IMG/VR virus record: IMGVR_UViG_3300029705_002947
DNA from: an uncultured virus (IMG/VR IMGVR_UViG_3300029705_002947)
Lineage: Duplodnaviria > Heunggongvirae > Uroviricota > Caudoviricetes
Length of the DNA: 64,000 nt
Strand: one strand, 5' to 3'
Shown here: one piece after another, positions 1,911 to 50,900 of the stretch
Layout of the letters: each line of letters starts with the position of its first letter
Position numbering within the stretch: the first letter of the stretch is position 1
Notes under the pieces: generated by a model
The model's database searches: none
Told to the model about the DNA's origin: nothing
The model's input: the letters and a program-made list of their open reading frames with translations, nothing else
Program-made: the position numbers and the translations under genes

Positions 1911-2819
1911 TTAGAATATATACTCAAATTTCTTATTATTATTTTTGAATTTTGTTAATCTACTATAAGCTGTTTTCATACCTTGTGGTAATTTAACATC
2001 TTTACTTTGAACTAATTTTTCTAATAGTTTATAATTTAAATATTTATCCATAAATGTATTATTAGAGTTTGTTCTCTCATTATATTTGTTTATAGAATTA
2101 CAAGCTTTACCTAAAGCGTTCATGAATAATTGTTCTGGAACACTTGCACAAACTTTATATATAAATGCTTGTAATCTTGTAACATATGGTTTATATTCTG
2201 GTTTTATATTTTTATCAACGTCTGTTTTACAGAAAGCTGTTATTATTTCTTCAGCTTTTACATCTAAAACAGCTTGTGTTATTATTGCTGATATAACATT
2301 CTCATTTACTTGTTTAGCATCATATTTTTCGTTATAAGCATTATATAATACTTCTGGAAGATTTTCTAATATGTTTTCAACTTCTTTAGTTCTAAAGAAT
2401 GGTGTTACATTATAACTTCTTATTGCTTTTACAGAAGCTATTAATATTGCTATATCTGTTTCTAGATGTCCTGTTATTTCACTTCCTAATTCTCTTTCTC
2501 TTAATCTGTATCCTAACATGAAAGCATCACCTTTAAGTTCTTCGTCATCTGATAAATGTGTTGCTGTATATAATACATATGCCATATCATAATTGATTCT
2601 ATCATCTTCAGATTGTATTAATAATGAAATTGTTTTAAAGAATTTATTTCCTCTTATTACTGAACACACTTCTTCAAATTCTCTTTTCATCTTATAGTTA
2701 TATTGATTGTTAACTATGAAATCTATTATTACTGGTTGATATTCTATTACTATGTTTTCTAATTCATTCATTGTTAAATCATAACTCATTTCATTTAAAA
2801 ATCCATTTATATTTTTCAT
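1911..2819 (-). CDS. Hypothetical protein (302 aa)
   Basis: Long ORF with GGAGG RBS; no motif recognised. Confidence 0.8.
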   Translation of the reverse strand: MKNINGFLNEMSYDLTMNELENIVIEYQPVIIDFIVNNQYNYKMKREFEEVCSVIRGNKFFKTISLLIQSEDDRINYDMAYVLYTATHLSDDEELKGDAFMLGYRLRERELGSEITGHLETDIAILIASVKAIRSYNVTPFFRTKEVENILENLPEVLYNAYNEKYDAKQVNENVISAIITQAVLDVKAEEIITAFCKTDVDKNIKPEYKPYVTRLQAFIYKVCASVPEQLFMNALGKACNSINKYNERTNSNNTFMDKYLNYKLLEKLVQSKDVKLPQGMKTAYSRLTKFKNNNKKFEYIF

Positions 2820-2871
2820 ATAATTACCTCCTAAATTTTTTTATTTATTTTAATTTAAATTACTGGCTATT

Positions 2872-3417
2872 TTAATGTTCTAATTCAAAATTTATCCAAT
2901 CATTGTCATCCCATGTAGACATATCATAAGGATCATACATATCATAATCGTCGTCATAATCGAATTCTTCATCTTCCATCTCAGCTTCTGCTTTTATTCT
3001 CTGTTCTATCATATATTGTGAAACTTCTTTTATTATTGAATAATCTCCTAGATAACTTATAAGTTCTTCATAATCATCTAGCTCTTTTCCTGTTAATAAA
3101 TCTCTCATTTGTTTAACTAATCTTAGACATTCATATTCATCTTCGTTTATCATTCTATAACATGTTTTATTATTTACTACGTTGTCTTCAATATAAAATT
3201 CATTTTTTACTTTATCATATTTTACTACATGTTGATATTTATTAATAAGCATCCACGCTTCTCCTTTTGTTTCACATTCAGGAATCTTATTAAATCCATA
3301 ATAAGCTCTTAATTTCTTAATAATATTCTTTTGTTTATCTGTAGGTTCGTCACTATGATTTCCTTTAAATTGTTTTCCATAACCATTTAAATTCTTTTTC
3401 ATAATATCAACCTCCAA
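2872..3417 (-). CDS. Hypothetical protein with acidic C-terminal tail (probable early gene)
   Basis: ORF with D/E/Y-rich tail; true start probably MKKNL; downstream of an early-type promoter motif. Confidence 0.75.
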   Translation of the reverse strand: MEVDIMKKNLNGYGKQFKGNHSDEPTDKQKNIIKKLRAYYGFNKIPECETKGEAWMLINKYQHVVKYDKVKNEFYIEDNVVNNKTCYRMINEDEYECLRLVKQMRDLLTGKELDDYEELISYLGDYSIIKEVSQYMIEQRIKAEAEMEDEEFDYDDDYDMYDPYDMSTWDDNDWINFELEH

Positions 3418-3432
3418 ATATAATTATTATAT

Positions 3433-3473
3433 TTCATCTATATAATATAGCATTGAAATTATGCCTTTTTACA
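3433..3473 (-). promoter_or_regulatory. Putative early phage promoter (tripartite motif, copy 1 of 6)
   Basis: TGTAA-N10-TTTC-AATGCT-ATATTAT-ATAG-ATGAA. The same architecture recurs at 6376-6415, 16316-16356, 18032-18071, 20534-20573 and 30671-30710. Confidence 0.7.
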
Positions 3474-3478
3474 GTTCA

Positions 3479-4141
3479 TTATTCCGATATATAAAATACA
3501 AATAATCTATCACCTTCATGTTCATATGAACATGTCATAAGAACTAATATTTCATCGTCTTCATCATATAACGTTGGTATAAAATATTTGGAGTTTTCTT
3601 GGATAGTTTGTATACCTTCACCTAACGGTATAGAGCATAACTTAGTATAATAGAAATTGTTATTTGTTACATATAATCCTAATGGTTTATATTTTTTAAT
3701 AGTTCCATCAGATCTTTCTATAACAACATTAGACTCTTTAAATTTAGTTTCATCTTCACGTAAATAATGTAATGTTGCAAACATGCTTTTATCTCTCATA
3801 CAATGTCCGTATAATATAGTCACATGACTAGAAAAAGGAACTCTTGATCCTTCATAGAATATAGCTCCGTGGCTAGATTCTCTATCATATATATCATGTG
3901 AAAGGTAATAAAAATTATCTTTTTCTTTCCATGCAACAGGATAATTTATTTTAGTATTCGTAATAGTAATCCAATCGAATTTAGTTAATAATGCTTCTTT
4001 TTCTTTAGCTGCTTCTTTATATGCTTTATGACTTTGATAACTATCTTCAATAACATTAATTATAGGTTGAGCATAAACTATAATTACCATTATCAATATT
4101 ATATTAATTAACCATCTAAATATTTTTCTCACATTAATCAA
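3479..4141 (-). CDS. srtB: Class B sortase
   Basis: N-terminal TM anchor; W..I.NTKINYPV, DNFYYL.HD, ILYGHCMRDKSMF (His) and LVLMTCSYE...R (catalytic Cys and Arg). Likely GTG start at 4132. Confidence 0.9.
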   Translation of the reverse strand: MINVRKIFRWLINIILIMVIIVYAQPIINVIEDSYQSHKAYKEAAKEKEALLTKFDWITITNTKINYPVAWKEKDNFYYLSHDIYDRESSHGAIFYEGSRVPFSSHVTILYGHCMRDKSMFATLHYLREDETKFKESNVVIERSDGTIKKYKPLGLYVTNNNFYYTKLCSIPLGEGIQTIQENSKYFIPTLYDEDDEILVLMTCSYEHEGDRLFVFYISE

Positions 4142-4156
4142 CTCCCAATAAAAAAA

Positions 4157-4183
4157 TAGAAAGAGCCTAAAAGGCTCTTTCTA
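4157..4183 (-). terminator. Intrinsic terminator between sortase substrate and sortase
   Basis: tagaaagagcct-aaa-aggctctttcta perfect 12-bp stem followed by a U-tract on the minus strand. Confidence 0.75.
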
Positions 4184-4185
4184 AC

Positions 4186-5040
4186 CTATTTTTCTTCATC
4201 TTTTTTCTTTTTATTATTAACTAATAATCCTACACCTGCAGCTGCAAGCACAGCCATTCCACCTACTGCTATTGCTTGCCCAGTTCCAGGAGTTATTTCA
4301 GGCACCCATCCTTTTGCATCTGATTCAAAGAAATCTATAAATATAACTTCAATAAGTTTCTTTTCTTCACTTACATTTGTATATACGTGATATTCTCCTT
4401 TTTCATTTCCTTCTTCTATTGTAACATAATTATCAGCTTCGTTTACACCTTCTATAAACTCAAGCCAAGCTTTCTTTTCTATCATAAAACTTGTATCTAT
4501 TTGTCTTTCCCCATTATTTAAAACACCAACTGCTGCCATAGATTCTCTGTATTTATTTATAACCTTTTGTTCAGCATCGTCAAATGATACAGTTGGTTCT
4601 TGTTCTTCTCCACTAGAACTACCAGCTAATTCGTATTCAAGATTAATTGCATCGATAGCTTGCTCTATGTCAACTTTAATACGTAAAAAAGCCTTCCCAT
4701 CTTGTAGTTCTAACTTAGTTGTTTGTTTACTTTCTTCTATAGCATTATACATAGTTACTACGTCTATAGACTTCATATCTATCTTAGTTGTATCCCAATT
4801 TGCAGAAATTTCATGTGTTCCTTCTGGGTGTCCTGAATATCCACCTACATTACGAATAGTTATCGTTATGTTTCCATCTTCAAGACTGTGAACACTTGCA
4901 ACAGGTCCACCATCTATGTCAACATAATTAAATTCTGTTATACTATTCGTCATTTCTGCGGCATATGAATCAACTGTTCCAAAACCCATTCCTACTACTA
5001 ATAATCCTGCTACTAATAAACTTTTAATTTTTTTATTCAT
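4186..5040 (-). CDS. Secreted cell-wall-anchored protein (sortase substrate)
   Basis: N-terminal signal peptide (MNKKIKSLLVAGLLVVGMG...SYA); C-terminal sorting signal TPGTG + hydrophobic stretch (QAIAVGGMAVLAAAGVGLLV) + basic tail (NNKKKK). Confidence 0.85.
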   Translation of the reverse strand: MNKKIKSLLVAGLLVVGMGFGTVDSYAAEMTNSITEFNYVDIDGGPVASVHSLEDGNITITIRNVGGYSGHPEGTHEISANWDTTKIDMKSIDVVTMYNAIEESKQTTKLELQDGKAFLRIKVDIEQAIDAINLEYELAGSSSGEEQEPTVSFDDAEQKVINKYRESMAAVGVLNNGERQIDTSFMIEKKAWLEFIEGVNEADNYVTIEEGNEKGEYHVYTNVSEEKKLIEVIFIDFFESDAKGWVPEITPGTGQAIAVGGMAVLAAAGVGLLVNNKKKKDEEK

Positions 5041-5087
5041 ATAAATCTCTCCTTTTAAATTATTTTTTACCTCGTTGCTATTTTATT

Positions 5088-5099
5088 TACTAATTTGTT
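5088..5099 (-). promoter_or_regulatory. Putative AR9-like late promoter AACA-N6-TA upstream of the sortase substrate
   Basis: Minus strand reads AACA-AATTAG-TA; one of 22 exact copies placed upstream of genes. Confidence 0.65.
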
Positions 5100-5114
5100 A
5101 TACCATAAATAAAA

Positions 5115-5594
5115 TTATATAAACTCGTAATTATTATTTATTATTTCTTCTATTTCAATCATTAGTTCATTCATTCTATTTAATATTAATGTTATTTCTT
5201 CTGCTACTTTAGTTTTTTCTTGTTCATTTGCAGCTATTGTATATTTTAATCCTAGATCCATTAAATCGTCTAAGCATTTATCTAATTCTATAGTTAGTTT
5301 TTGTGTTGGTTTGATTCTATTTTTTGTCATATAATCAAATAACTTAATGGCATCGTTCATTGTTAAATCTTCGTCCTCTGTTATTGTAAATAATACATTA
5401 TCTATCAATCTCATTATTGCGAAATATTCTTGTTCTAAAACAACAACATCAAGTTCTTGTTGAATATTTTCTTTTGATGGTTCAGGTTCATTATTTTGAC
5501 ATCCTGTTAACCCTAAACAACATAAAGTTAAAATAAGGGCTAAACCTATAATTGCTATGTTTTTTATCAATTTTCCAATTATCATCTTTTTCAT
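5115..5594 (-). CDS. Putative lipoprotein
   Basis: Basic N-terminus, hydrophobic core, lipobox LTGC followed by a polar linker. Confidence 0.7.
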   Translation of the reverse strand: MKKMIIGKLIKNIAIIGLALILTLCCLGLTGCQNNEPEPSKENIQQELDVVVLEQEYFAIMRLIDNVLFTITEDEDLTMNDAIKLFDYMTKNRIKPTQKLTIELDKCLDDLMDLGLKYTIAANEQEKTKVAEEITLILNRMNELMIEIEEIINNNYEFI

Positions 5595-5659
5595 TTACAC
5601 CAATCCCCTTTCTAAATATTTGTTATATACGTTATAAAAAAATAAGATGCTTATGCATC

Positions 5660-6346
5660 TTATTTCCATGGCATTCCATACATATCTTTATATATTTTAT
5701 CGAATTCTTCATTATTCATTATTATTTTTCTTGATTGGTTTAATACGTCTTCTGCATATTTTGTATTAAATCTAGCATATCCTTTTTCTCCATATTTATC
5801 TTGTAAATGTGATATTACTTCATCATATATTTCTTTATCATTTTTATCTGGATAATGTTTTCTATTCCATTTATAAGTTCTTTCTATCATTGTGTTTATA
5901 TCATTCATTCTATCTGCATCTGAAACTATTTTACTATAAACACTTGTATACTCACCTTTATAACTTGCTCTATGTTCTTCTACTGATTTTGCTATTAATT
6001 CTATTTGTTCCTCTGAAAAGAATCTTCTTAATTCTTTTTCTTTTCTTACTATTTCTCCTGATTTAGTATGGTGTGTTTCTCTATCATACGCTAATCCTAA
6101 ATCGTGCATTGCTGCTATTACTTTAACCATTCTCATATCTAATTTTATTTTCTCGTCTTTCATCATGTTTGCTGCTATATATTCTGAGTTCTTTATAACC
6201 ATTCTTGCATGTTTATCATCATGTGCTCCATCAAACTTTTTATATTTTTCTATTGTTATTTCTATAAATCTATCTAATTCTTTTTCATTTATTTCTTTAA
6301 ATTGTCTTCCTTTTGTCTCTAAATATATATTTAATGTATGTTTCAT
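5660..6346 (-). CDS. HD-domain metal-dependent phosphohydrolase
   Basis: AHDDKH...IAAMHDLG...HHTKSG...EH...IVSDADR: canonical H...HD...D motifs. Confidence 0.88.
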   Translation of the reverse strand: MKHTLNIYLETKGRQFKEINEKELDRFIEITIEKYKKFDGAHDDKHARMVIKNSEYIAANMMKDEKIKLDMRMVKVIAAMHDLGLAYDRETHHTKSGEIVRKEKELRRFFSEEQIELIAKSVEEHRASYKGEYTSVYSKIVSDADRMNDINTMIERTYKWNRKHYPDKNDKEIYDEVISHLQDKYGEKGYARFNTKYAEDVLNQSRKIIMNNEEFDKIYKDMYGMPWK

Positions 6347-6375
6347 ATTACCATCCTCCTTAATTATTTGTCTTA

Positions 6376-6415
6376 TTCATGTACATAATATGGTATTGAA
6401 ATTATGAGAATTACA
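6376..6415 (-). promoter_or_regulatory. Putative early phage promoter (tripartite motif)
   Basis: TGTAA-N9-TTTC-AATACC-ATATTAT-GTAC-ATGAA upstream of the HD gene. Confidence 0.7.
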
Positions 6416-6422
6416 AAAAAAA

Positions 6423-6446
6423 AGAATATGCCAAAAGGCATATTCT
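6423..6446 (-). terminator. Intrinsic terminator
   Basis: agaatatgcc-aaaa-ggcatattct with U-tract after the RNAP subunit gene. Confidence 0.75.
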
Positions 6447-7161
6447 AATCTAATGTTTTAGGTAACATATAATCATTCATTACAAGGTCAGTCATTAATC
6501 CTGCACCCATAAAGAATACTGCTGCAGAGTTTAAAGTAGTTTTATTAGAAAGTTTATCTGTTAATTCGTTCATTGCAACATAACCATCTCTAGCAATTTT
6601 TTTATTCATTTCGTCTTTCATTACCTTATCATCAGCTCTCATAGACATTAATTCTTTTAGTGATACGTTAGCACCATAAGTAAGTAATGCAGTAGTTTCT
6701 TGGTCTGAGTTTCTTGAGTTTTTATCATGACCTGTAACCTGACCAGTTATCATATTTCTTTCACTTATGTCTGTAGAAAGTCCTAATTTCTTAAAGTTTA
6801 TTTGTTGTAGACGTTTCATATTAAGATATCCAACTAAACACTCATGCTTTGTTATTACAGGTTTACTTGGATCTTCACTTGCATATGGTAATACAACTCT
6901 TTCAAATAAAGGAACTTTTAAAAACTTAGCAGCTTTTTCTATATTTTCTATTAATAATGGATTCTCATAATCCACCATAGTAGCTGTTAGATATGGATCA
7001 TCTTGTTTAAATAAGTTTTTAAAATAGTTATCAAATTTAGCATCGTCCATACCTTTAAATAAATTTCTATAATATTCTGTATTTCTACCAGATGGATCAA
7101 ATAAATCAAAGAAATTATAAATTAAATTTTCCATTTCTTTTCTTCTAGCTTTATCTATCAT
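6445..7161 (-). CDS. Split multisubunit RNA polymerase, beta subunit C-terminal fragment (phiKZ/AR9-like, probably virion RNAP)
   Basis: LVGYLNMKRLQQ...ITGQVTG...SDQETTALLTYGANVSLKELMSMRADD aligns by eye to the RpoB C-terminus VGYMYMLKL...VTQQPLGG...GEME.[22 protein letters not shown]. A stand-alone ~240-aa piece is typical of phiKZ-like phages. Confidence 0.82.
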   Translation of the reverse strand: MIDKARRKEMENLIYNFFDLFDPSGRNTEYYRNLFKGMDDAKFDNYFKNLFKQDDPYLTATMVDYENPLLIENIEKAAKFLKVPLFERVVLPYASEDPSKPVITKHECLVGYLNMKRLQQINFKKLGLSTDISERNMITGQVTGHDKNSRNSDQETTALLTYGANVSLKELMSMRADDKVMKDEMNKKIARDGYVAMNELTDKLSNKTTLNSAAVFFMGAGLMTDLVMNDYMLPKTLD

Positions 7162-8465: not shown

Positions 8466-9149
8466 CTATCTGATACTACAATCTTTATAGGCTATTATTT
8501 TCTTTTTATCGTGATCATACCACACCCAACCACCATCTTTAATTAAAAATACTTTTTCCTTATGTAATTTTTTAAATTTTCTAGTTGAGGCTAATATCTT
8601 TTGAGCTTGTTTATTATCTTCTTTATTATAATGAGGTATTATAACAAATCCTTTTGTCATATTAATTCCTCTAAAAGTTTTATATTTTTTATAATCGTGA
8701 TCTGGATACACGAAAAATTTCTTACACCAAAACATAGAACCTGCCGATTCTCCTACAACTATTTTACATTGTTTAATAGTTTCTATTAATCTAAATTCAT
8801 GTAATAATTTAACTATATTTTCAGGAAATCCTCCAGGTAAATATACAATTGTATTATCAGCTAACAATTTCTGTTTTATTAATGGTATTGGATCTGCATA
8901 TATATTTATTACCACTATTCTATCAGGATTTATACCTATATCAATAAACGGTTTTGCAGTCCTCCAATATATCGATTCTTTATTAAATAAATCCCTATCA
9001 TAATGTTTATAAACACCCTCGGCATCTTTAATATAATTAAAATCATGTGCTAAAGGTAATATTACTAGTTGTGTTCTATTATTAATATTTTCTTTTAGAT
9101 AATCTATTGACTCAACTCCACCTGATACACTAGTTAAAAATAATTGCAT
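8466..9149 (-). CDS. Peptidase S51 (dipeptidase E)/class I glutamine amidotransferase-like protein
   Basis: VYLPGG, nucleophile elbow GESAGS and IIPHY motifs. Confidence 0.8.
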   Translation of the reverse strand: MQLFLTSVSGGVESIDYLKENINNRTQLVILPLAHDFNYIKDAEGVYKHYDRDLFNKESIYWRTAKPFIDIGINPDRIVVINIYADPIPLIKQKLLADNTIVYLPGGFPENIVKLLHEFRLIETIKQCKIVVGESAGSMFWCKKFFVYPDHDYKKYKTFRGINMTKGFVIIPHYNKEDNKQAQKILASTRKFKKLHKEKVFLIKDGGWVWYDHDKKKIIAYKDCSIR

Positions 9150-39942: not shown

Positions 39943-42900
39943 GTGTTGATAATTCCTATGAGTAATTACGATGAAAGAGAATTTTATCAATCTTCACGAT
40001 TTGTTTTTATTGGTGATAGTATACCAACTGCCAATAATAAAATAGTGTATCGTAAGGGAGATATAATTGTAAACATAGGTGAAACTCAAGCAACAGAACC
40101 TATATTCGTATGTATTAAAGGTGGAATGCCTGGTGAATGGATATCTGTTGGTGGTGGAGAAGCTACTGCTGGTGAAAATGGTAAATCTGCGTATGAACTT
40201 GCCGTTGATAATGGATTCGAAGGTACTGTAGAAGAATGGTTAGAATCATTACAAGCTAATGGAAAAGCATTTACGTATGAAGATTTTACAGAAGAACAGT
40301 TAGCAGCTTTAGTAGGACCTCAAGGTGAGGTTGGACCACAAGGACCTCAAGGTGAGCCTTTTAAATATGAAGATTTTACTATAGAACAATTAGAACTGTT
40401 AACTGGACCTCAAGGTGAGGTTGGACCACAAGGACCTCAAGGTGAGCCTGGACCTAAAGGAGATCCGTTTAAATTTAGTGATTTCACGTTAGATCAGTTA
40501 GAAAATCTAAGAGGACCACAAGGACCTGTTGGTGCACAAGGACCAATGGGACCTCAAGGTATACAAGGACCAGCTGGTGTGGCAGGACCTAAAGGAGAAC
40601 CAGGTGAACCAGGATATACTCCTATCAAAGGTGTTGATTATTTCACTGAAGAAGAAATAGATAGATTAGTTTATAATGATGAAGAAATTAGAGAGTTATT
40701 ATTAGACGATGAACCTTATGTAGAATACTTACACAATTATAATAGAGTATTTATGTGTGGTTATCCAACAGTTGTTGATATTAATAAAGATCATAAATAT
40801 GATGAAAATGAACCAGAAGATTCTATTATAGTGAGATATAAATTTAATCAAAAACACTGTTATATAGCAATACTTGCTGAAGATGCTCCTAAAACTATAA
40901 TATATGGTGGTTATGGACCAAGAAAACATGAAATAAGAAGAGTTCTACCTAACACATTCTTAGATGTTAGAAATGTTAAAATATATGGTGTTAATGTAGG
41001 TGGATATTTTGAAGGTAATATAGGAAAAGCAGAATTAGTTATGGAAAATTGTCAAGTTGAACAAATATGCTGCGGTGATTGTGAAAAACCTATAGATAAA
41101 AAACAACCTGAAAAACTTATAATCCATGAAGTTGATATAAAACTTAACAATGTAGTTTGTAACGGAAACGCTTATGTAGGAACTGGAGGATTCGGCGTAG
41201 TAAATAAAGGAAGAATGGAAATAAACGATGGATGTATAATTAACTTTGCTATTGCTGGTGGAGCAAATGGATACACTAGATTTGGAGAGATAATAGTTAA
41301 TGGAGGTACAGTAAACGTATTACAAAGTGCTAATAGAGGAATTGTGGATAAATCTCACTTAGTTATAAATGGAGGTATTGTAGATAGATTTTATGCTGGT
41401 GGATCACCTGCATCTGTAGTATACGACCATTATATAGAATTAAATGGAGGTACTGTACATAAATTAGCTCCTGGATTTAGTAATGGTGTTACTATACCAG
41501 AAATAAAAGGATGTATAATGAACGCTGAAGTTATTAATGGTGATACATCTATGTTAGAAGTAGTAGAAGAAAAACCAGAAGTAATTGGTGGATATGGTAA
41601 ATCTGCATATGAATTAGCAGTAGAAAACGGATTTGAAGGTTCTTTAGAAGAGTGGTTTGAAAGTTTAAAAGGACCACAAGGAGAACAAGGACCTCAAGGT
41701 GAAGCATTCGGATTCGACGATTTTACTATAGAACAATTAGAAGCTATAAGAGGACCTAGAGGTAAGCAAGGACCTAAAGGTGAAATAGGACCAGAAGGAC
41801 CTGTTGGACCTAAAGGAGAACCTTTTAAATATGAAGACTTTACTGAAGATCAATTATTAGATTTAATCGGACCAGAAGGTCCTAGAGGAAAATCTGCTTA
41901 TGATATTGCAGTTGAAGTTGGTTTTGAAGGAGATATGAAAGAATGGTTAGAATCATTAATTGGTCCACAAGGAGAGCAAGGACCTAAAGGAGAACCATTT
42001 AAATTCGATGATTTTACTATAGAACAATTAAGATTATTAAAAGGACCACAAGGAGAAAAAGGTGATCCGTTTAAATATGAAGATTTTACTAAAGAGCAAT
42101 TAGTCGATTTAATAGGACCACAAGGACCAGAAGGACCTGCTGGACCACAAGGGGAACCTTTTAAATATGAAGACTTTACTATAGAACAATTAAAATTCTT
42201 AAAAGGACCTAAAGGTGATCAAGGTGAAGTTGGTCCACAAGGTGAACAAGGACCTAAAGGAGAACCATTTAAATATGAAGATTTTACTAAAGAACAACTT
42301 ATAGAATTAAAAGGACCTCAAGGACCAGAAGGACCACAAGGTAAACCTTTCTTATATGAAGATTTCACATTAGCACAACTAGCTGAGTTAAGAGGACCTC
42401 AAGGTATACAAGGTGAAGTTGGACCTCAAGGTGAAGTTGGACCTCAAGGACCACAAGGAGAAAAAGGTGAACAAGGACATTCTGCTTATCATGCATGGAG
42501 AACTATAGAAGGAAATGAAGAAGGTACTGTAGAAGAATTTATTGAGGCTATAAGAGGGGAAAAAGGAGATCAAGGAGAACAAGGACCTAAAGGTGATGCT
42601 TTTGAATATGGTGATTTCACTATAGATCAATTAGAAGAATTAAGAGGACCTCAAGGTATCCAAGGTGAAGTTGGACCTCAAGGACCAATGGGACCACAAG
42701 GTATACAAGGACCAGAAGGACCTCAAGGACATTCTGCTTATCAAGCATGGAAAACTATAGAAGGAAATGAAGAAGGTACTGTAGAAGAATTCTTAGAAGA
42801 AATGAAAGGACCTAAGGGGGATAAAGGTGATAAAGGAGATCCATTTAAATATGAAGATTTCACTATAGAAGAATTAAGATATTTAAGAGGACCTCAAGGT

Positions 42901-44238
42901 ATCCAAGGTGAAGTTGGACCAGAAGGACCTAGAGGACCTAAGGGAGATAAAGGTGATCAAGGTGAAATGGGACCTCAAGGTGAAATAGGTCATGTTGGAC
43001 CTCAAGGACCTCAAGGTGAAAGAGGACCTAAAGGTGAACCATTTGAATACGGTGACTTTACATTAGAACAATTAGAAGCATTAAGAGGACCAGAAGGACC
43101 TGCTGGACCACAAGGACCTAAAGGTGAACCTATGTCTTTTGACGATCTTAATGAAATACAAAAAGCTGCTTTAAAAGGTGAACAAGGACCAAAAGGAGAT
43201 AAAGGTGACAAAGGAGATCCATTTAGATATGAAGATTTTACTGCAGTTCAATTAGCTGCTTTAGTAGGACCAGAAGGACCTGCTGGACCACAAGGACCTA
43301 AAGGAGATAGAGGACCACAAGGTATTCAAGGATTACAAGGTGAACAAGGACCTCAAGGATTACAAGGTGAAAAAGGTCTACAAGGTGTACCTGGACCAGA
43401 AGGACCTAAAGGTCAACAAGGTGAACAAGGACCTCAAGGTGAAAGAGGATTACAAGGTGTACCTGGACCAACTGGACCACAAGGATTACGTGGTGAACCA
43501 GGGCAACAAGGACCTAAAGGAGACCAAGGTGAAAAAGGTCTACAAGGTGAAGTTGGACCTAGAGGAGAACAAGGACCTAAAGGAGATAAAGGTGAAGATG
43601 GTTATACTCCAGTAAAAGGTGTAGATTACTTCACAGAAGAAGAGTTAAATGAATTGTTATACGATGATTCTGAAATAAAAGAAAGAATTGAAATTTTAGA
43701 ACAACCTAAACATAAAATAACTAATGTACCGGAAGGAACTATTGTTGAGTACAGAGAAGATGAAATAAGAATAATGTGTCCAAATAATGCTGTATTTACT
43801 CAACAAGAAGTAGGAGATGGTGGTAATGCTAATATGTATTATATGGCAATGACTACACAAGCTCCAGAAGGTGCTGTTGCATTTAATGAAGGTGATAAGG
43901 GTGTTATTACTGAAAGAAATATTAAACTAGAAGGTAACACATCTAAAACTATATGGTTAGCACTTGCTAGTTTAAACGGAGGGAATTGGACTTATTTTGG
44001 TAAAAATTCTACAGCTGCAAAACCTATAGGCTGGGATTATATAATAGAATGGCTTGACGAAAATGGAAATATTATAGAAACTAATGTTATAAGAATCAAC
44101 TTATCTAATGAAAACTGTCATGGTGTAAGTTTATTCTCTGCAGTTAAAGAATTAGCTAATATGTTTAAGTTCAACGCAAATGGAGAATTAGTTGTAACTA
44201 TAGATGGAGTTTCTAAAGTATTTATACCTAAAGAATAG
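39943..44238 (+). CDS. Collagen-like tail fibre/appendage protein
   Basis: Extensive Gly-X-Y runs interrupted by [23 protein letters not shown]...EWL.SL and GYTP.KGVDYFT repeats; central beta-helix-like GG-rich segment; probable ATG at 39958. Confidence 0.8.
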
Positions 44239-44996: not shown

Positions 44997-47900
44997 ATGA
45001 AAGTTATATATAAAGGAATTGCTATTGATAGTAAAATAGAGGAAAAAAGAATAGAACAGTTATTACATGATGATGCTATAAATAGAGTAACTAAAATAAC
45101 TGTTAAAATTCCTGAAGATAATTATTCCTTAACTTTAGTTCCTAGTGCAGACTATATAACAGATGAAGGTCTTGTAAGCTGGGGAGATAATATTGATGGA
45201 TATTTAAACGATACCTGTGTACATGTATATGAAAAAGCAGGAGTTTATGATATATCAGGACATTTTACTTTTGGTTTAGGAACAGAACCTACGGCTAGTA
45301 TAAGACGATGTCTTGTTGAAGTTAAAAATTTAACTGAAGTAAATGGAAATTTAAGTAATGCATTCTTTAGTTGTTATAATTTAAGAATATTCGATTCCAT
45401 TACTGAGTTACATCCGACTACATTATATTCCACATTTAGAGATTGTAATCAATTGTTATCAGTCAATACAACTAAATGGGATACTAGTAATGTAACTAAT
45501 ATGAGCAATACATTTGGAGGTTGTCGATCATTATTAACTGTTGATGTAAGTAATTGGGATACTGGTAATGTAACTAATATGGGCAATTTGTTCAATGCAT
45601 GTGAAAAAATAAATAACTTAGATGTAAGTAATTGGGATACTGGTAAAGTAACCAATATGAACAATACATTCGGTCATTGTTACTTACTGGAAAGTATAGA
45701 TGTAAGTAATTGGGATACTGGTAACGTAATAGATTTCTGTGGAACATTTTTTGATTGTTACCTATTAGAACATATAGATGTAAGTAATTGGGATACACAT
45801 AGTGCACAATATATGAATGGTGTATTTAGAAGATGTCATTCGTTAAAATCAATTAACATAAGTAATTGGAATACTATTAATGTATCTACTATAGGATATA
45901 TGTTCTTAGAATGTGAAGAGTTAACAGAAATAATAGGATTACAAAATCTTAATGTAACAAATGTTACAGATATGATGAATACCTTTAATGGTTGTAAAAA
46001 ATTACAAGATATTTCAGGAATAATAACTTGGGATACTGGTAAAGTTGAGATTTTACAAAATACATTTGCAAATTGTACAACGCTTAATAATATAGATTTA
46101 ACTAATTTTGATACTGATAATGTAACTAATATGACTGGTATGTTTATGGGTTGTACAGGTTTAACTTCATTAAATGTAAGTAATTTCAATACACCTAGGT
46201 TATTATATACATCAAATATGTTTAAAGATTGTATTAACTTAACTTCTATAATTGGTATAGAAAACTTAACTGTTAATAGAGTAACTAAAATGGACTATAT
46301 GTTCTATGGTTGTGAAAAATTAACAAATTTAAATTTAAGCACTTGGGTTACAGGAAACACATTGCATTCAATGATGGCTATGTTTGCTGATTGTAAATCA
46401 TTGAAGTCGTTAAATGTAAGTGGGTTTAACGTTAGTGGAGTACAACATATAGTAGGTAAAATTGATAACGTTGATAGAGGTTTATTCTCTCAATGTAATG
46501 CTCTTACTGAAATAATAGGTATTGAAAATTGGAATACTAAAAATATAAATAATATGTTTGAAATGTTCTGGAGATGCTATGAATTAACTTCATTGGACGT
46601 ATCTAGTTGGAATACTGGAAATGTAACTAGTATGTATAGAATGTTCAATGATTGTAACAAATTACATACTATAACAGGTGTTGGTAATTTTAATACTAGC
46701 AAAGTAACTAGTATGCAAAGTATGTTTAATGGATGTAACGCTTTACAAACATTAGATAATTTAAGTAAATGGGATACTGGAAATGTAACTAGTATGTTTA
46801 TGATGTTTAAAGATTGTAATGTGCTTACAGAAATAAATGGTATAGGTAATTGGAATACTGGAAATGTAACAAATATGAATGCGTTATTTCAAAATTGTTA
46901 TGGACTGAAATCAGTAGATGTGATTGGATGGAATACTGCTAAAGTTACTGATATGAAATATTTATGCAGTAAATGTAATTCATTAATTAAACTGGATGTA
47001 GATAACTGGAATACTGAAAATGTAACCAATATGCAAGGTATGTTCAATGAATGTGAACAACTAGAAACGTTAAACGTAACAAATTGGAAGACATATAAAG
47101 TAACTAATATGCGTGGTATGTTTAACAGCTGTAAATCATTGAAATTATTAGATGTAAGTGGATTTAATACTGCAAAAGTAACTGACATGACATACATGTT
47201 TATTTATTGTAATTCATTAGAAGTATTAGATGTAAGTGGATTCAATACTAGTAGAGTTACAAGTATGGATAATATGTTCAGAGATTGTTTTTTAGTACAG
47301 TCATTGGATGTAAGTCATTGGGATACTAGTAATGTAACTAATATGTATAATATGTTCTATAATTGCCAATCATTAACATCGTTAGATTTAAGTAATTGGA
47401 ATACTGGTAAAGTAACTGATATGAGAAATATGTTCCAAAATTGTTATAGATTAGAAATAATAGATGGAATTAGTGATTTAGTTACTAGTAAAATAACTAA
47501 TATAGATAATTTATTTCACATGAATGAAAAATTACAAAGTATAGATGTAAGTAATTGGGATACTAGTAATGTAACTACTATGCGTAATACATTTTTTAAT
47601 TGTAGATTAATAACAACAATAGATGTTAGTAATTGGAATGTTGGTAAAGTAACTAATATGCATTGTTTATTCCAAGGTTGTACTAATTTAATTGATGTTG
47701 GTGATATATCTAATTGGGATGTAAGTAACGTAACTAATATGAATGTTATGTTTGGTTTCTGTCCGAGTTTAGTTAGAATAAATACAACTAATTGGGATAT
47801 GAGAAAAGTTAAAACTACTCAACAAATGTTCAATTCATGTAACAACTTAGTTGAAATTATTGGTATGGAAAATTGGGTTATGGATTCTCTTGAAAATATA

Positions 47901-50900
47901 GCAGGTATGTTCTGTTATTGTAATTCTTTAATTTCACTAGATGTTTCTAATTGGAATACTAATAAAGTAACTAGTTTAGGTGTTACGGCAGGTGAAGATT
48001 TTAAAGGATTATTCAAAGGTTGTAATTCTTTAACAACTATAATAGGTATTAATAATTGGGATGTTAGTAATGTAACTGATATGAGTCATACATTTAATTC
48101 ATGTACAAGTTTACAAGAACTTAACATAAGTGATTGGGATACTAGAAATGTAATTCGTATGGATAAAATGTTTATGCGATGTCAATCTTTAACTTCATTA
48201 GATGTAAGCAATTTTGATACTAGTAAAGTAATTACTATGGATGGCATGTTCCGTGAATGTCAATCTTTAACTTCATTAGATGTAAGTAACTTTGATACTA
48301 GTAAAGTAATTACTATGTATGCTATGTTCTATGATTGTAGATCATTAACTTCATTAGATTTAAGTAATTTTGATACTAGTATTGTGACTAATATGAGTTC
48401 AATGTTCAATATTTGTAATAAATTAACTTCATTAGATTTAAGTAATTTTGATACTAGTAATGTAACTACTATGAGTCATATGTTCTACGGGTGTAATGAA
48501 TTGACTTCAATAGGAGATGTAAGTAACTGGGACACTGGTAATGTAACTGATATGAGTGTGATGTTTGGTAATTGTTATAATTTAACTTCATTAGATGTAA
48601 GTAATTGGGATACTGGTAAAGTAACTACTATGAGTAATATGTTCCATGGTTGTCAATCATTAACTTCATTAGATGTAAGTAATTGGGATACTGGTAAAGT
48701 AACTACTATGAGATATATGTTTGCTGCATGTAGAATTATAACTGAATTAAATTTAAGTAACTGGGATGTTAGTAATGTAACTGATATGACTAGTTTATTT
48801 GATAACTGCTATATGCTAACTACGGTAGGAGATATAAGCAACTGGGATACTGGTAAAGTAACTGGTATGGGAGCTATGTTCTCTTATTGTCAAAAAATAA
48901 ATGGGTTAAATGTAAGTAATTGGAATGTTAGAAATGTAGCATATATGTATTATATGTTTAATGAATGTTTAGAATTAACTTCAATAGATGTAAGTAATTG
49001 GAATACTGAAAGTTTATTACAATCTCATTGGATGTTTAGAAAATGTCAAAAACTAACTTCATTAGATGTAAGTAACTGGGATGTTAGTAATGTAATTAAT
49101 ATGAATCATATGTTCCAACATTGTCCTCAATTAACAACAGTTGGTGATTTAGGTAATTGGGATACACATAATGTAACAACAATCAATAATATGTTTGATT
49201 GTTGTAATAGTTTAGAATCTCTAAATGTAAGTAATTGGGATACTAGTAGTGTAACTAATATGTCAAGTGCATTTGTAGGCTGTAGTATCATACCAGAATT
49301 AGATGTTTCCAATTGGGATACTAGAAATGTAACTACTATGGATAGATTGTTCTACTCATGTAACTCATTAACTTCATTAGATGTATCTAGATGGAATACT
49401 AGTAAAGTAACTACTATGAATAATATGTTCGCTAATTGTAACAATGTAACAGCGTTAGACGTAAGTAATTGGAATACTAGTAATGTAACTAATATGCTTA
49501 ATTTATTTGATGGGTGTAATAATTTAACTTCAATAGATGTAAGTAACTGGGATACTAGAAATGTAGATAATATGGGGGGAATGTTTAGAGCTTGTAACAA
49601 ATTAACTTCATTAGATGTAAGTAATTGGAATACTAGTAAAGTAACCAAAATGGACGCTATGTTCTCCAATTGTTATAGTTTAACTTCATTAGATGTAAGT
49701 AATTTTGATACTGGTAAATTAGTTAATAGTTGGGCTATGTTTTATAATTGTAACAAATTAACTTCATTAGATGTGTCTAAGTGGAATGTTAGTGCATTAA
49801 AAAGCTCTCAAGAAATGTTTCAATTATGTCAGTCGTTAACTTCATTAGACATGAGTAAATGGAATTTTGCACCAATACATATATATGAGATGTTCTGTGA
49901 TTGTACTAACTTAAGAAGTATAACATTTGGTGAAAATTGGGATACTGGAAATGTAACTGATATGGGTTATATGTTCAAAGGATGTAAATCATTAACAACA
50001 TTAGATGTAAGTAATTGGAATACTGGTAATGTAACTAATATGCATTATATGTTCCATAGTTGTACTAATTTAAAAACATTAGATGTAAGTAAATGGAATA
50101 CTAGTAAAGTAACTAGTTTAAGAATGATGTTCCATTATTGTATATCATTAACTACTATAGGAGATGTAAGTAAATGGGATACTAGTAATGTAACTACTAT
50201 GGAAAATACGTTCCAATCATGTACTAAATTAAATGATATAAATATAAGTAATTGGGATGTAAGTAACGTTGAATCTATACATGCTATACTTCATAATTGT
50301 ACTTCTCTTACTAATGTAGATATCAGTGGATGGGACTTTAATAATTCAATAAATGCATCAGTATGTATAAGTGGATTAAATAAGGTAAAAACAATTTATT
50401 TCCCTAAAAAGCATGTTAATATCGTTGATATTGTTTATACAGAAAACGGTCAACCAATACATGGATTCTTAAAAAACTGTCACGAATTAACAACTATAGA
50501 TTTTGGTGGATTTGATTTAACTAATGCTGAAGATGATTTAGGTTTATGCATGAAAAATTCACCTAATATCAGATATGTAAGATGTGATATAGCAGGTACA
50601 CTTAATAAAATAGTTAATTATTTACCAGTAAGAACCGTAGAAGCACCAGGTTGTTTAATAACTACAGCTAGCGTTACTAATGAAATATTATCAGTACTTA
50701 ATAGTAAAAACTGGAATATAGTTAGCCTAGAAGAGGATGGTACTAAATTAGCTTCGTATACATTCGATAAGAGTATTTATTCTAGTCACGTTCCTCAATT
50801 TAATAATCCATCATCTAATGAATATGGTGATTATGACGGATATTTCTGGAACGATGTTATAGACGGAAACTTAGTAACTAGAACTTTATACACATTACGT

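Follow-up and report, generated by a model that had tools for sequence, protein, structure and literature searches.

The locus and its phage setting

Three co-oriented genes occupy the minus strand at positions 3479–5594 of the window, the 64,000-nucleotide stretch of DNA analyzed here, and encode, in order of transcription, a lipoprotein, a sortase substrate, and a sortase. The lipoprotein gene (5115–5594, minus strand) specifies 159 amino acids (aa), the substrate gene (4186–5040, minus strand) 284 aa, and the class B-type sortase gene (3479–4141, minus strand) 220 aa when read from a TTG at 4141, beginning with an N-terminal membrane anchor. The genes lie at about 55 kb of a 227,537-bp IMG/VR contig, and the sequencing runs that bear the contig are metagenomes of faeces and bovine gut, with no RNA run listed among them. 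Flanking phage genes encode a piece of the RNA polymerase beta subunit, a topoisomerase II, and a UvsX-like recombinase. The RNA polymerase piece, which belongs to a split multisubunit RNA polymerase gene, matches phrog_3233 at 4.8e-42 and is nearest to those of Bacillus phage Goe21 (best, 38%), Staphylococcus SA1/DC4, and Yersinia phiR1-37. Given the size of the contig and the phage genes on both sides, the placement of the genes in a jumbo phage by the preliminary description holds; judged from its sequence, this is an AR9/PBS1-like jumbo phage from the animal gut. The DNA of the region found no match among 50,697 phage records. Alignment of reads and contigs at 80% likeness revealed many strain variants of the region. 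Contigs part just beyond the sortase stop codon, with loose ends at 3473 in three runs. Some contig joints omit parts of the trio; their sides are short, and such joints are unreliable.

The first gene product carries an LTGC lipobox at residues 29–32 (...CCLGLTGCQNN), preceded by MKKMIIGKLIKN and a hydrophobic run. G31 and C32 of this lipobox are unchanged in every one of 24 homologues, whose identity falls as low as 41%, bearing out the earlier identification of this 159-aa open reading frame (ORF) as a lipoprotein. An AlphaFold 2 (AF2) model (pLDDT 72) places helices across residues 50–157, which would form a mature four-helix bundle. The model had no Foldseek match at E ≤ 0.001, and the protein has no Pfam, NCBIfam, or PHROG family and no match among the 50,697 phage records. 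An Atlas search returned “putative lipoprotein”-type clusters at 0.87–0.90, inside the chance range. The name “dimeric dUTPase,” given by one source to a 96% homologue, is backed by none of the searches.

Two AACA-N6-TA motifs punctuate the upstream regions on the same strand. One (AACAAATATTTA, 5613–5624) stands upstream of the lipoprotein gene, 19 nt from the ATG, and its core, ATAACAAATATTTAGAA, is identical in the related loci L098 and L099. The other (AACAAATTAGTA, 5088–5099), of the AR9 late-promoter type, is upstream of the substrate gene at 48 nt from the ATG and occupies the same position in L098 and L099, such that the motif precedes both genes in all three AR9-like loci. In the available passages of PMC5312081, the late-promoter consensus of AR9 is AACA-(6N)-TA/G, its last base being the transcription start. 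AR9/PBS1-type phages share with the present one the split multisubunit RNA polymerase and AACA-N6-TA before many genes. They differ in that their deposited records, among the 50,697 phage records, hold no close relative of the sortase, substrate, or lipoprotein, and in that the AR9 early-promoter motif is not enriched in the window (58 matches versus 63.7 expected). Nor is AACA-N6-TA enriched over the whole window (90 matches versus 110.7 expected). Twenty-five of the 90 matches fall in the intergenic 7% of the window, and 20 of these lie at most 120 nt upstream of a co-oriented gene. The earlier claim of phage-type promoter motifs is supported by their presence before lipoprotein and substrate and their retention in L098 and L099.

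An intrinsic-terminator-like hairpin with a T-run (4157–4183, minus strand) separates the substrate stop codon from the sortase start codon. Its 12 pairs (5 G-C) and loop of three fold at −17.4 kcal/mol, in agreement with the 12-bp terminator first noted there. A hairpin recurs at this place in six of seven phage loci (the window, L098, L099, L102, L103, and L104) with differing stem sequences and is absent from L005. Over positions 2800–6500, four terminator-like sites were found against 0.5 expected. Further upstream, a short hairpin, GATGC-ATAA-GCATC, with its T-run (5646–5659, minus strand) follows the upstream HD-domain gene and precedes the lipoprotein motif; it was seen by folding and not in the consensus terminator scan, and L098 and L099 have a comparable hairpin. 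Since L005 is devoid of the substrate–sortase hairpin and L102–L104 of the upstream AACA motif, the regulatory picture is not universal.

Sortase, substrate, and their pairing across phages

The sortase gene has an in-frame GTG at 4132 (minus strand), 9 nt downstream of a GGGAG, which yields a 217-aa protein. This is the length in five of the six closest homologue clusters; spacing and length agree in making the GTG, as had been proposed, the likelier start on sequence grounds than the TTG at 4141. Residues 58–215 match the Pfam Sortase family (PF04203) at 38.4 bits, above the gathering cut-off of 26.6. Against the NCBIfam srtB equivalog model TIGR03064, the protein scores 92.3 bits, under the cut-off of 153.75, and aligns to profile positions 74–235 only. 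By these profiles, the enzyme is SrtB-like, though not an equivalog at the NCBI threshold. All 23 aligned homologues share His113 and Cys204, and at least 90% have Arg212; Lys replaces the catalytic Arg in two (P0003 and P0029). These catalytic residues align with the catalytic region of 1rz2 and 5gyj, and eight residues separate Cys from Arg. A profile of the 23 homologues drew 15 PDB matches, mostly named sortase B and with no other sortase class named, headed by 1rz2 (1.3e-41) and followed by 5gyj/4ux7 (“peptidase C60B, sortase B,” 5.8e-39). Uninformative names among the 15 are those of 1rz2 (“BA4783”), 5jcv (“Lmo2181”), and 3psq (“hypothetical exported protein”). We take 1rz2 to be Bacillus anthracis SrtB and 5gyj/4ux7 to be Clostridioides difficile SrtB, presume that all 15 are of SrtB type where their names do not already say so, and assume that C. 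difficile SrtB has the same eight-residue spacing between Cys and Arg. By its closest solved relatives, then, the sortase falls in class B and not in class A, C, D, or E, and its description as an intact class B-type enzyme with His, Cys, and Arg stands.

The substrate gene ends 44 nt from the sortase gene, counted from the TTG start. Its product is laid out as a signal peptide (~1–28), a variable β-sandwich (~29–140), an α/β domain (~155–240), and lastly the cell-wall sorting signal, the protein ending ...PEITPGTGQAIAVGGMAVLAAAGVGLLVNNKKKKDEEK. By inspection of the sequence, the signal peptide MNKKIKSLLVAGLLVVGMGFGTVDSYAA opens with a basic n-region, continues in a hydrophobic core, and closes in A-x-A-like fashion, and its mean identity over 24 homologues is 76%. 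The sorting motif ITPGTGQ (residues 249–255; codons at 4276–4296, minus strand) is invariant in 25 of 25 homologues, as are W245, P247, and GLLVNN at 271–276. TPGTG itself occupies residues 250–254 of 284 and is followed by AIAVGGMAVLAAAGVGLLV, a 19-residue uncharged and mostly hydrophobic segment, and then by NNKKKK; signal peptide, motif, hydrophobic helix, and basic tail are kept in all 25. Translation thus confirms the secreted protein with a complete sorting signal, TPGTG plus hydrophobic stretch plus KKKK, that had been described. Sorting-signal criteria were set as in PMC4155245, with PxTG 17–45 residues from the C-terminus, a hydrophobic segment, and two or more basic residues in a row, and the substrate has all of these features. 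It is the only such ORF in the window; likewise the 202-kb record G001 has one, without paralogues. By analogy, cleavage is predicted between T253 and G254. The Gram-positive anchor models proposed as a check, in contrast, missed it: no family at E ≤ 0.01 came from Pfam, PF00746 included, or from NCBIfam. The anchor models were built on LPXTG signals, and PF00746 is present in only one (P0080) of 44 substrate-family matches.

The exposed part behaves quite differently from the two ends. While signal peptide and anchor stay conserved, ectodomain identity among homologues drops to 14%, and by these comparisons the exposed domains are mosaics that vary greatly. The AF2 model (mean pLDDT 65) contains two domains at 70–85. 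Structure prediction of the ectodomain, proposed earlier, has delivered two modeled domains and only generic fold matches: the best Foldseek E value was 7.8e-4 (TMq 0.23), in generic β-sandwich rows only; VIA-align gave the β-sandwich a best Z of 6.7, where Z under 8 is common between unrelated folds; and the second domain (155–235) reached Z of about 5 against nucleotidyltransferase-like chains. Because the matches are generic, no function is assigned from fold. A substrate profile found nothing under E 0.19 among PDB sequences and no relative in 185,579 species genomes, and the protein had no match among the 50,697 phage records.

The sortase gene directly follows the substrate gene in seven of seven phage loci (the window, L005, L098, L099, L102, L103, and L104; the L102 substrate gene is frameshifted). 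Identity to the sortase of the window is 44–96% inside its own clade and 36–41% between the two phage clades, and the sorting motif changes with the clade: clade-1 sortases accompany ITPGTGQ substrates (2/2 loci), and clade-2 sortases accompany [DE]PxTGD substrates (5/5). Both L098 and L099 have clade-2 sortases. In L098, the lipoprotein is 92% identical and the flanking genes are the same, yet sortase and substrate are of the other type, indicative of a cassette swap, and the substrate ectodomain is replaced outright. The earlier claim of a cognate sortase and xPxTG substrate is well served by this adjacency and co-variation. These comparisons make the sortase and its substrate a genuine and conserved pair; enzyme and sorting signal are further predicted to make up a private specificity pair that is exchanged together, a prediction that shares the good likelihood of our favored explanation as a whole.

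Relatives outside these phages are distant. Among 185,579 species genomes, the nearest bacterial sortases share ~30–36% identity across the whole catalytic domain and reach ~52% at most, on short segments. Among the 50,697 phage records, the sortase has 16 weak matches, none covering 80% of the query, with a best identity of 35% at two-thirds query cover and up to 44% on shorter segments; PHROGs has no family for it. Five bacterial loci that ranked high on the sortase HMM proved to be an artefact of the bacterial sequence P0037 in the alignment, and one of them, L022, is plain chromosomal DNA that encodes a tRNA synthetase and an ABC transporter. Of the best 80 bacterial sortase loci (L017–L096), 39 have a sorting-signal ORF upstream. 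Its motif is SPxTG in 37 (SP[KQ]TG in 36, SPTTG in one), and TPGTG or [DE]PxTG in none. Gut Clostridia (Ruminococcus and Lachnospiraceae MAGs) thus resemble the phage in having a short secreted sorting-signal protein directly upstream of a co-oriented SrtB-type sortase, and this layout of small substrate followed by srtB is probably the ancestral one. They differ from it in their SPxTG-type motif, their chromosomal location, and the want of a conserved MNKKIKSLLVAGLLV signal peptide.

C. difficile SrtB offers a further comparison. It shares the class B fold family with the phage enzyme by profile (4ux7 and 5gyj, 5.8e-39), and the available passages of PMC4155245 give Cys209 for it and report cleavage between T and G of (S/P)PXTG peptides. 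Its substrates, like that of the phage, have xPxTG followed by an acidic or polar residue; however, the first residue of the motif is S or P in C. difficile and T, D, or E in the phages. The C. difficile enzyme has seven or eight chromosomal substrates, as opposed to one adjacent substrate for the phage sortase, and the latter falls under the TIGR03064 equivalog cut-off.

Proposed wall display and competing explanations

Gene content, motifs, conservation, co-variation, and synteny are observed directly at these loci. We consider it probable that they reflect a two-gene cassette for wall display, carried by an AR9/PBS1-like jumbo phage whose host is a Gram-positive bacterium of the animal gut. 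How the protein is exported, where it is cut, how it is attached to the wall, and with what timing and stoichiometry, we infer as follows. The substrate gene would be transcribed from its own AR9-type late-promoter motif, with the terminator hairpin and a weak GTG or TTG start keeping the level of sortase low. The 284-aa substrate would be exported via Sec and retained in the membrane through the helix and KKKK tail at its C-terminus, where the membrane-anchored phage sortase would cut it after Thr253 of ITPGTGQ and pass it to a peptidoglycan precursor. The wall of the infected cell would then bear a covalently attached phage protein whose exposed domains depend strongly on the strain. The upstream lipoprotein gene would stand outside the cassette, belonging to the backbone of this phage subgroup and having a promoter of its own.

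The most likely role of such display, tentatively held, is masking or alteration of the cell surface late in infection, leading to superinfection exclusion and sparing progeny from sticking to debris. A more ambitious version, on which we place slightly less weight still, sees a surface-conflict device of phage versus phage or host: orthogonal enzyme–tag pairs (clade 1 with ITPGTGQ, clade 2 with [DE]PxTGD, both unlike the host-type SPxTG) would move as cassettes between phage backbones while the ectodomains, framed by a constant signal peptide and anchor, are shuffled domain-wise, and the late RNA polymerase of a largely lytic jumbo phage would drive a covalent, strain-specific wall coat that masks receptors against rivals and spares progeny from debris.

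Alternatively, the displayed protein could be cargo of benefit to the host, an adhesin or nutrient binder made in a carrier, pseudolysogenic, or prophage state, and not a lytic weapon. PBS1-type phages show pseudolysogeny, and the IMG/VR class “provirus” of the relatives G001 and G002 would fit such a state better than a lytic-cycle role. Gut Clostridia, Ruminococcus among them, often have the same gene layout (39/80 loci). Upstream of the L103 substrate, where the AACA motif is absent, occurs the sequence TTGACA, which equals the sigma-70 −35 consensus. The N-terminal domain weakly resembles the carbohydrate-binding modules CBM56, CBM29, and CBM21 (Z 4.5–6.1), but these fold matches are within the stated noise range of the tool. 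Moreover, the upstream motifs in the present phage are of the phage late type, and the strong mosaic diversification of the ectodomain is more in keeping with conflict than with a housekeeping adhesin, even if compatible with one. We therefore regard a host-benefit function as unlikely, if not by a wide measure.

The preliminary description had treated the three genes as one module. On such a reading, the lipoprotein might act together with the pair, for instance as a co-factor in the membrane, as an acceptor, or as another component of the surface. In the window, L098, and L099, the lipoprotein does sit immediately upstream in the same orientation, even after the sortase and substrate have been swapped; it has the same late-promoter motif and, judged by its lipobox with G-C invariant in 24 of 24, would be extracytoplasmic. 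However, the HD gene and the RNA polymerase piece are also syntenic in these three loci, and therefore the adjacency of the lipoprotein is not specific. A lipoprotein homologue occurs in two of the five other sortase-bearing phage records and is absent at E ≤ 0.001 from the 135-kb G004, which has direct terminal repeats, from G005 (216 kb, 84% complete), and from G006; in L102–L104, unrelated genes stand upstream of the substrate in its place. Against a shared function speak also its own promoter motif, the hairpin before it, and its 92% identity in L098 although the substrate ectodomain there was exchanged. A predicted complex of the sortase (30–220) with the lipoprotein (33–159) scored 0.00, which gives no verdict either way. 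Of the trio, which had been proposed for a search in related phages, the sortase–substrate half recurs in all seven loci, while the lipoprotein is not constant. Because it is missing from three of the five other records, the locus is by comparison of genomes a pair plus a neighbor, not a trio, with the lipoprotein a conserved neighbor rather than an obligate partner, and joint action of all three is improbable.

Some class B sortases build pili. The phage sortase might accordingly polymerize its substrate, ligate it to another protein, or free it into the medium, and FctA-like pilin domains are indeed found in longer phage substrates in the available passages of a recent preprint (10.64898/2026.10.24.761521). 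The present 284-aa substrate, in contrast, has no pilin-like domain by Pfam or fold search, and there is one substrate with no second pilin gene. The closest solved relatives of the enzyme include 5gyj/4ux7, and C. difficile SrtB has been proposed as a general housekeeping sortase (PMC4155245, available passages). A reaction other than wall anchoring is thus quite improbable. Finally, a recent bacterial insertion or a phage–host assembly chimera, which the preliminary description itself named as refuting cases, can draw on the bacterial long-run origin of sortase and layout, the missing PHROGs sortase family, and the lack of a close sortase in the 50,697 deposited phage records, but is rendered wholly implausible by the same locus, its synteny conserved, in independent contigs that come from different samples, phage genes on both sides, a GC content of 0.25–0.28 over the region similar to the flanks, phage homologues at 44–96% within the clade versus ~30–36% for the nearest bacterial sortases, phage-type promoter motifs, and a substrate without relative in 185,579 species genomes.

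Known surface-modifying systems and what the cassette may mean

Phage T5 Llp is a lipoprotein that serves superinfection exclusion. Like the proposed wall protein, it is an envelope protein made by the phage and could block receptors against superinfection and protect progeny, a likeness confined to the proposed role and extending also to lambda Lom. Unlike it, both insert noncovalently in Gram-negative envelopes and have no dedicated enzyme, and no relation of sequence or fold between them and the trio was found. Lom is cited as a surface-modifying phage protein in the available passages of bioRxiv 10.64898/2026.10.24.761521 (24 October 2026), which describe SrtB–substrate modules in 24 gut huge phages, superpose a phage SrtB on 1NG5, and already raise surface display and possible receptor masking. 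The novelty implied in the preliminary description is therefore lost: as far as these passages go, the kind is already known and was first described there. Its modules share with the present one a SrtB with His, Cys, and Arg, an upstream signal-peptide protein, a variable exposed region, a conserved PXTG, residence in the animal digestive tract, a phage of more than 200 kb (here on a 227,537-bp contig), and a substrate gene immediately upstream. The preprint reached the same architecture independently, and its 24 phages may include the present one. The 135-kb relative L102, with terminal repeats, falls under the 200-kb line of the preprint, whose available passages make no mention of a lipoprotein, promoter, terminator, or AR9. 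Beyond them, the present analysis adds co-varying classes, the cassette swap, the terminator, the late motif, the single substrate, and domain-wise mosaicism.

As the kind is already in the preprint, the value here lies in these anatomical additions: two specificity classes in which enzyme and motif co-vary, the exchange of cassettes at one fixed locus, and a conserved terminator before the enzyme, together with predicted control by late promoters, a single substrate in each genome, ectodomains built as mosaics, and the removal of the lipoprotein from the module. The phage enzyme–tag pair is probably not read by the host's own sortase, and naturally orthogonal pairs of sortase and motif could serve as ligation tools. 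For the phages themselves, sortase display would provide a means for a Gram-positive phage to covalently rewrite the wall of its host and, if the role is receptor masking, would constitute a Gram-positive counterpart of the exclusion proteins of Gram-negative phages.

The sortase–substrate pair and its phage setting

The observation in the preliminary description is confirmed: the three co-oriented genes are present, all on the minus strand within 3479–5624. The substrate, a 284-aa ORF (4186–5040, −), starts with MNKKIKSLLVAGLLVVGMGFGTVDSYAA and ends with KGWVPEITPGTGQAIAVGGMAVLAAAGVGLLVNNKKKKDEEK, termini that read as a signal peptide and as a cell-wall sorting signal with all its parts, bearing out the claimed secreted, sortable protein. 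Next to it lies the sortase, a 220-aa ORF (3479–4141, −) with a hydrophobic N-terminal anchor. The GTG start suspected for it is found at 4132, 9 nt after GGGAG, yielding a 217-aa protein, the length seen in five of the six closest homologue clusters. The third gene encodes a 159-aa lipoprotein (5115–5594, −) bearing an LTGC lipobox.

A search of 5.8 billion proteins returned 37 sortase relatives, and a profile of 23 of these sortases matched 15 solved chains, the majority named sortase B and none named as another sortase class. The best matches are 1rz2 (1.3e-41, name 'BA4783') and 5gyj/4ux7 (~6e-39, 'peptidase C60B, sortase B'), which we take to be B. anthracis SrtB and C. difficile sortase B, respectively. 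The description of the enzyme as an intact class B sortase holds for its Pfam Sortase match (38.4 bits against a cut-off of 26.6) and its His/Cys/Arg residues, but not at the level of the NCBIfam sortase_srtB equivalog, where its 92.3 bits fall short of the 153.75-bit cut-off. Its fold family and catalytic residues thus mark the phage sortase as SrtB-like, yet it is no NCBI equivalog. His113 and Cys204 are invariant among the 23 aligned sortases and Arg212 is found in 21, with Lys instead in two homologues, P0003 and P0029; by contrast, the available part of a preprint reports the Arg as kept in 24 of 24 phage SrtB proteins (bioRxiv 10.64898/2026.10.24.761521).

The setting of the trio is that of a phage. 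It is flanked by an RNA polymerase beta piece (phrog_3233, 4.8e-42), an HD phosphohydrolase and an IF-1 homologue, and farther along the window lie topoisomerase II subunits, helicases, an endolysin, tail fibres and a UvsX-like recombinase. The polymerase piece is nearest to those of Bacillus phage vB_BsuM-Goe21 (38%), Staphylococcus phages SA1 and DC4, and Yersinia phiR1-37, relatives that constitute the AR9/PBS1-like group. The trio genes recur at ~55 kb in a 227,537-bp IMG/VR contig, a 202,636-bp record has 98% of the window's words in common, and GC through the trio region is flat (0.25–0.28). The stretch is present in sequencing runs from animal faeces and in bovine-gut metagenomes. IMG/VR labels two related records, G001 (the 202-kb record) and G002, 'provirus', although neither an integrase nor flanking host DNA was noticed in them.

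Several neighbouring genes merit mention in their own right. The 72-aa IF-1 homologue (1569–1787, −; PF01176 at 8.3e-15; phrog_30201) is conserved in the related phage locus L099 (11354–11575). Neither a 273-aa multi-pass membrane protein of the TMEM164 family, unusual for a phage (665–1486, −; PF14808 at 9.4e-20), nor a Peptidase_S51 protein (8466–9149, −; PF03575 at 9e-15) matches a PHROG family. Within 4457–6226 of L099, the homologue of the polymerase piece (window 6445–7161) occupies two ORFs, 5190–5552 and 5846–6226, separated by ~290 nt; just upstream lies a 250-aa ORF whose C-terminal part looks HNH-like by eye, and the split may be an intron or mobile-element insertion. A 1431-aa tail-fibre protein with collagen-like repeats (39943–44238, +) has a GC of 0.35–0.385 versus ~0.26 elsewhere, and is followed by a 4283-aa ORF (44997–57848) and then a 1551-aa ORF.

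Cognate motifs and mosaic substrates

Substrate then sortase, directly adjacent, is the arrangement in all seven loci: the window and the related phage loci L005, L098, L099, L102, L103 and L104. The clade-1 sortases of the window and L005 both accompany ITPGTGQ, and the five remaining sortases, 41% identical to that of the window (76% between L098 and L099), all accompany the other motif class (DPNTGD, DPETGD, DPATGD, EPETGD and DPETGD), a co-occurrence of 2/2 and 5/5 among phylogenetically non-independent loci. The pair is genuine and cognate. A scan of all stop-to-stop frames of at least 50 aa gave a single sorting-signal ORF each for the window and the 202-kb record, and a profile of each protein found no paralogue of sortase, substrate or lipoprotein. 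Both the predicted cleavage site and the expected motif-level specificity derive from the T–G cleavage of (S/P)PXTG peptides by C. difficile SrtB, as described in the accessible portion of that study (PMC4155245). In L102 (3251–3869), a frameshift divides the substrate gene in two, one piece holding the signal peptide and the other DDPATGD and the anchor, with an intact sortase downstream; decay or a misassembly could account for this. Many related contigs in three gut metagenome runs match as far as ~3473, just beyond the stop codon of the sortase gene, and part ways there, hinting at a variable junction as the cassette boundary.

The substrate has 44 relatives. Across 25 aligned sequences, with overall identity down to 36%, W245, P247, I-T-P-G-T-G-Q (249–255) and GLLVNN are invariant. 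Mean identity to the window substrate is 76% in the signal peptide, 33% in the N-domain, 59% in the C-domain and 78% in the sorting signal. Two homologues depart from it in opposite senses: P0053 retains 14% identity in the N-domain and 95% in the C-domain, P0050 74% and 37%. The pattern is mosaic, and the predicted exposed domains have been swapped independently of each other. In two pooled searches, xPxTG occurs near the C-terminus in 87 of 100 family members (TPGTG in 40, [DE]PxTG in 30, other forms in 17) and is absent from 13, mostly truncated.

Regulatory elements and the neighbouring lipoprotein

The hairpin behind the proposed terminator at 4157–4183 is real, with a 12-bp stem, a T-run and a fold energy of −17.4 kcal/mol. 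Stable hairpins with T-runs separate substrate and sortase in six of the seven loci, with differing stem sequences; L005 has no hairpin there, and where its sortase should start shows neither ATG, GTG nor TTG. Both AACA-N6-TA motifs lie where they had been placed (5613–5624 and 5088–5099), and match the AR9 late-promoter consensus AACA-(6N)-TA/G, whose last base is the transcription start according to the part of that work available (PMC5312081). Over the whole window the motif is not enriched (90 observed versus 110.7 expected), though 25 of the 90 copies are intergenic in a window only 7% intergenic, and 20 of these 25 have a co-oriented gene starting no more than 120 nt downstream. The copies ahead of the lipoprotein and substrate genes are kept in L098 and L099; the one ahead of the substrate gene is absent in L102, L103 and L104. 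In L103, a 216-kb phage, the region upstream of the substrate gene (3306–3405) carries TTGACA, the sigma-70 −35 consensus, in its place, from which the cassette may be transcribed by host polymerase in some lineages. Overall, the regulatory elements of the pair favour ample substrate and little enzyme, though they fall short of proving it.

The lipoprotein had been described as the third member of the module. It has 87 relatives, many at 90–95% identity, and the Gly-Cys of its lipobox is unchanged in all 24 aligned lipoproteins; the mature protein is modelled as a four-helix bundle (pLDDT 72), for which fold comparison gave nothing informative. The window, L098 and L099 all have it upstream of the pair. 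Since the HD and RNA polymerase genes lie there too, this adjacency is backbone synteny. L098 has a 92% identical lipoprotein, yet the other sortase/substrate type, and three of the five other sortase-bearing phage records, where the upstream genes differ, lack a lipoprotein homologue. For these reasons, the module is read as a pair plus a neighbour, with the lipoprotein no member.

Ancestry and standing of the pair

Among 185,579 bacterial and archaeal species, one genome each, profiles found no substrate relative and 444 bacterial sortase relatives. The best 80 of these come mostly from Ruminococcus and other gut Clostridia, at ~30–36% identity over the full domain. Of these 80 loci, 39 have, on the strand of the sortase, a small sorting-signal ORF whose end lies within 1 kb upstream, so the substrate–sortase layout is probably bacterial in ancestry; 37 of the 39 carry SPxTG, and none TPGTG or [DE]PxTG. 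By sequence comparison the phage pairs form deep clades of their own with motifs of their own, which excludes both a recent bacterial insertion and a phage–host chimera.

This kind of pair has already been described. The accessible part of the preprint (bioRxiv 10.64898/2026.10.24.761521, 24 Oct 2026) describes 24 huge phages from animal digestive systems and 24 SrtB genes in them; upstream of each gene a substrate of 175 to 1,047 aa is encoded, with a signal peptide and a sorting signal of the PXTG type; surface display is suggested there and receptor masking offered as speculation. The kind is therefore known, as far as that text goes, without experimental characterisation. The preprint limits novelty; the words lipoprotein, promoter, terminator and AR9 do not occur in that part. 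The anatomy added here, namely motif classes, cassette exchange, terminator, promoter motif, the single substrate per genome, mosaicism and exclusion of the lipoprotein, is apparently new. Taken together, this phage probably uses a private enzyme–tag pair for covalent display on the cell wall.
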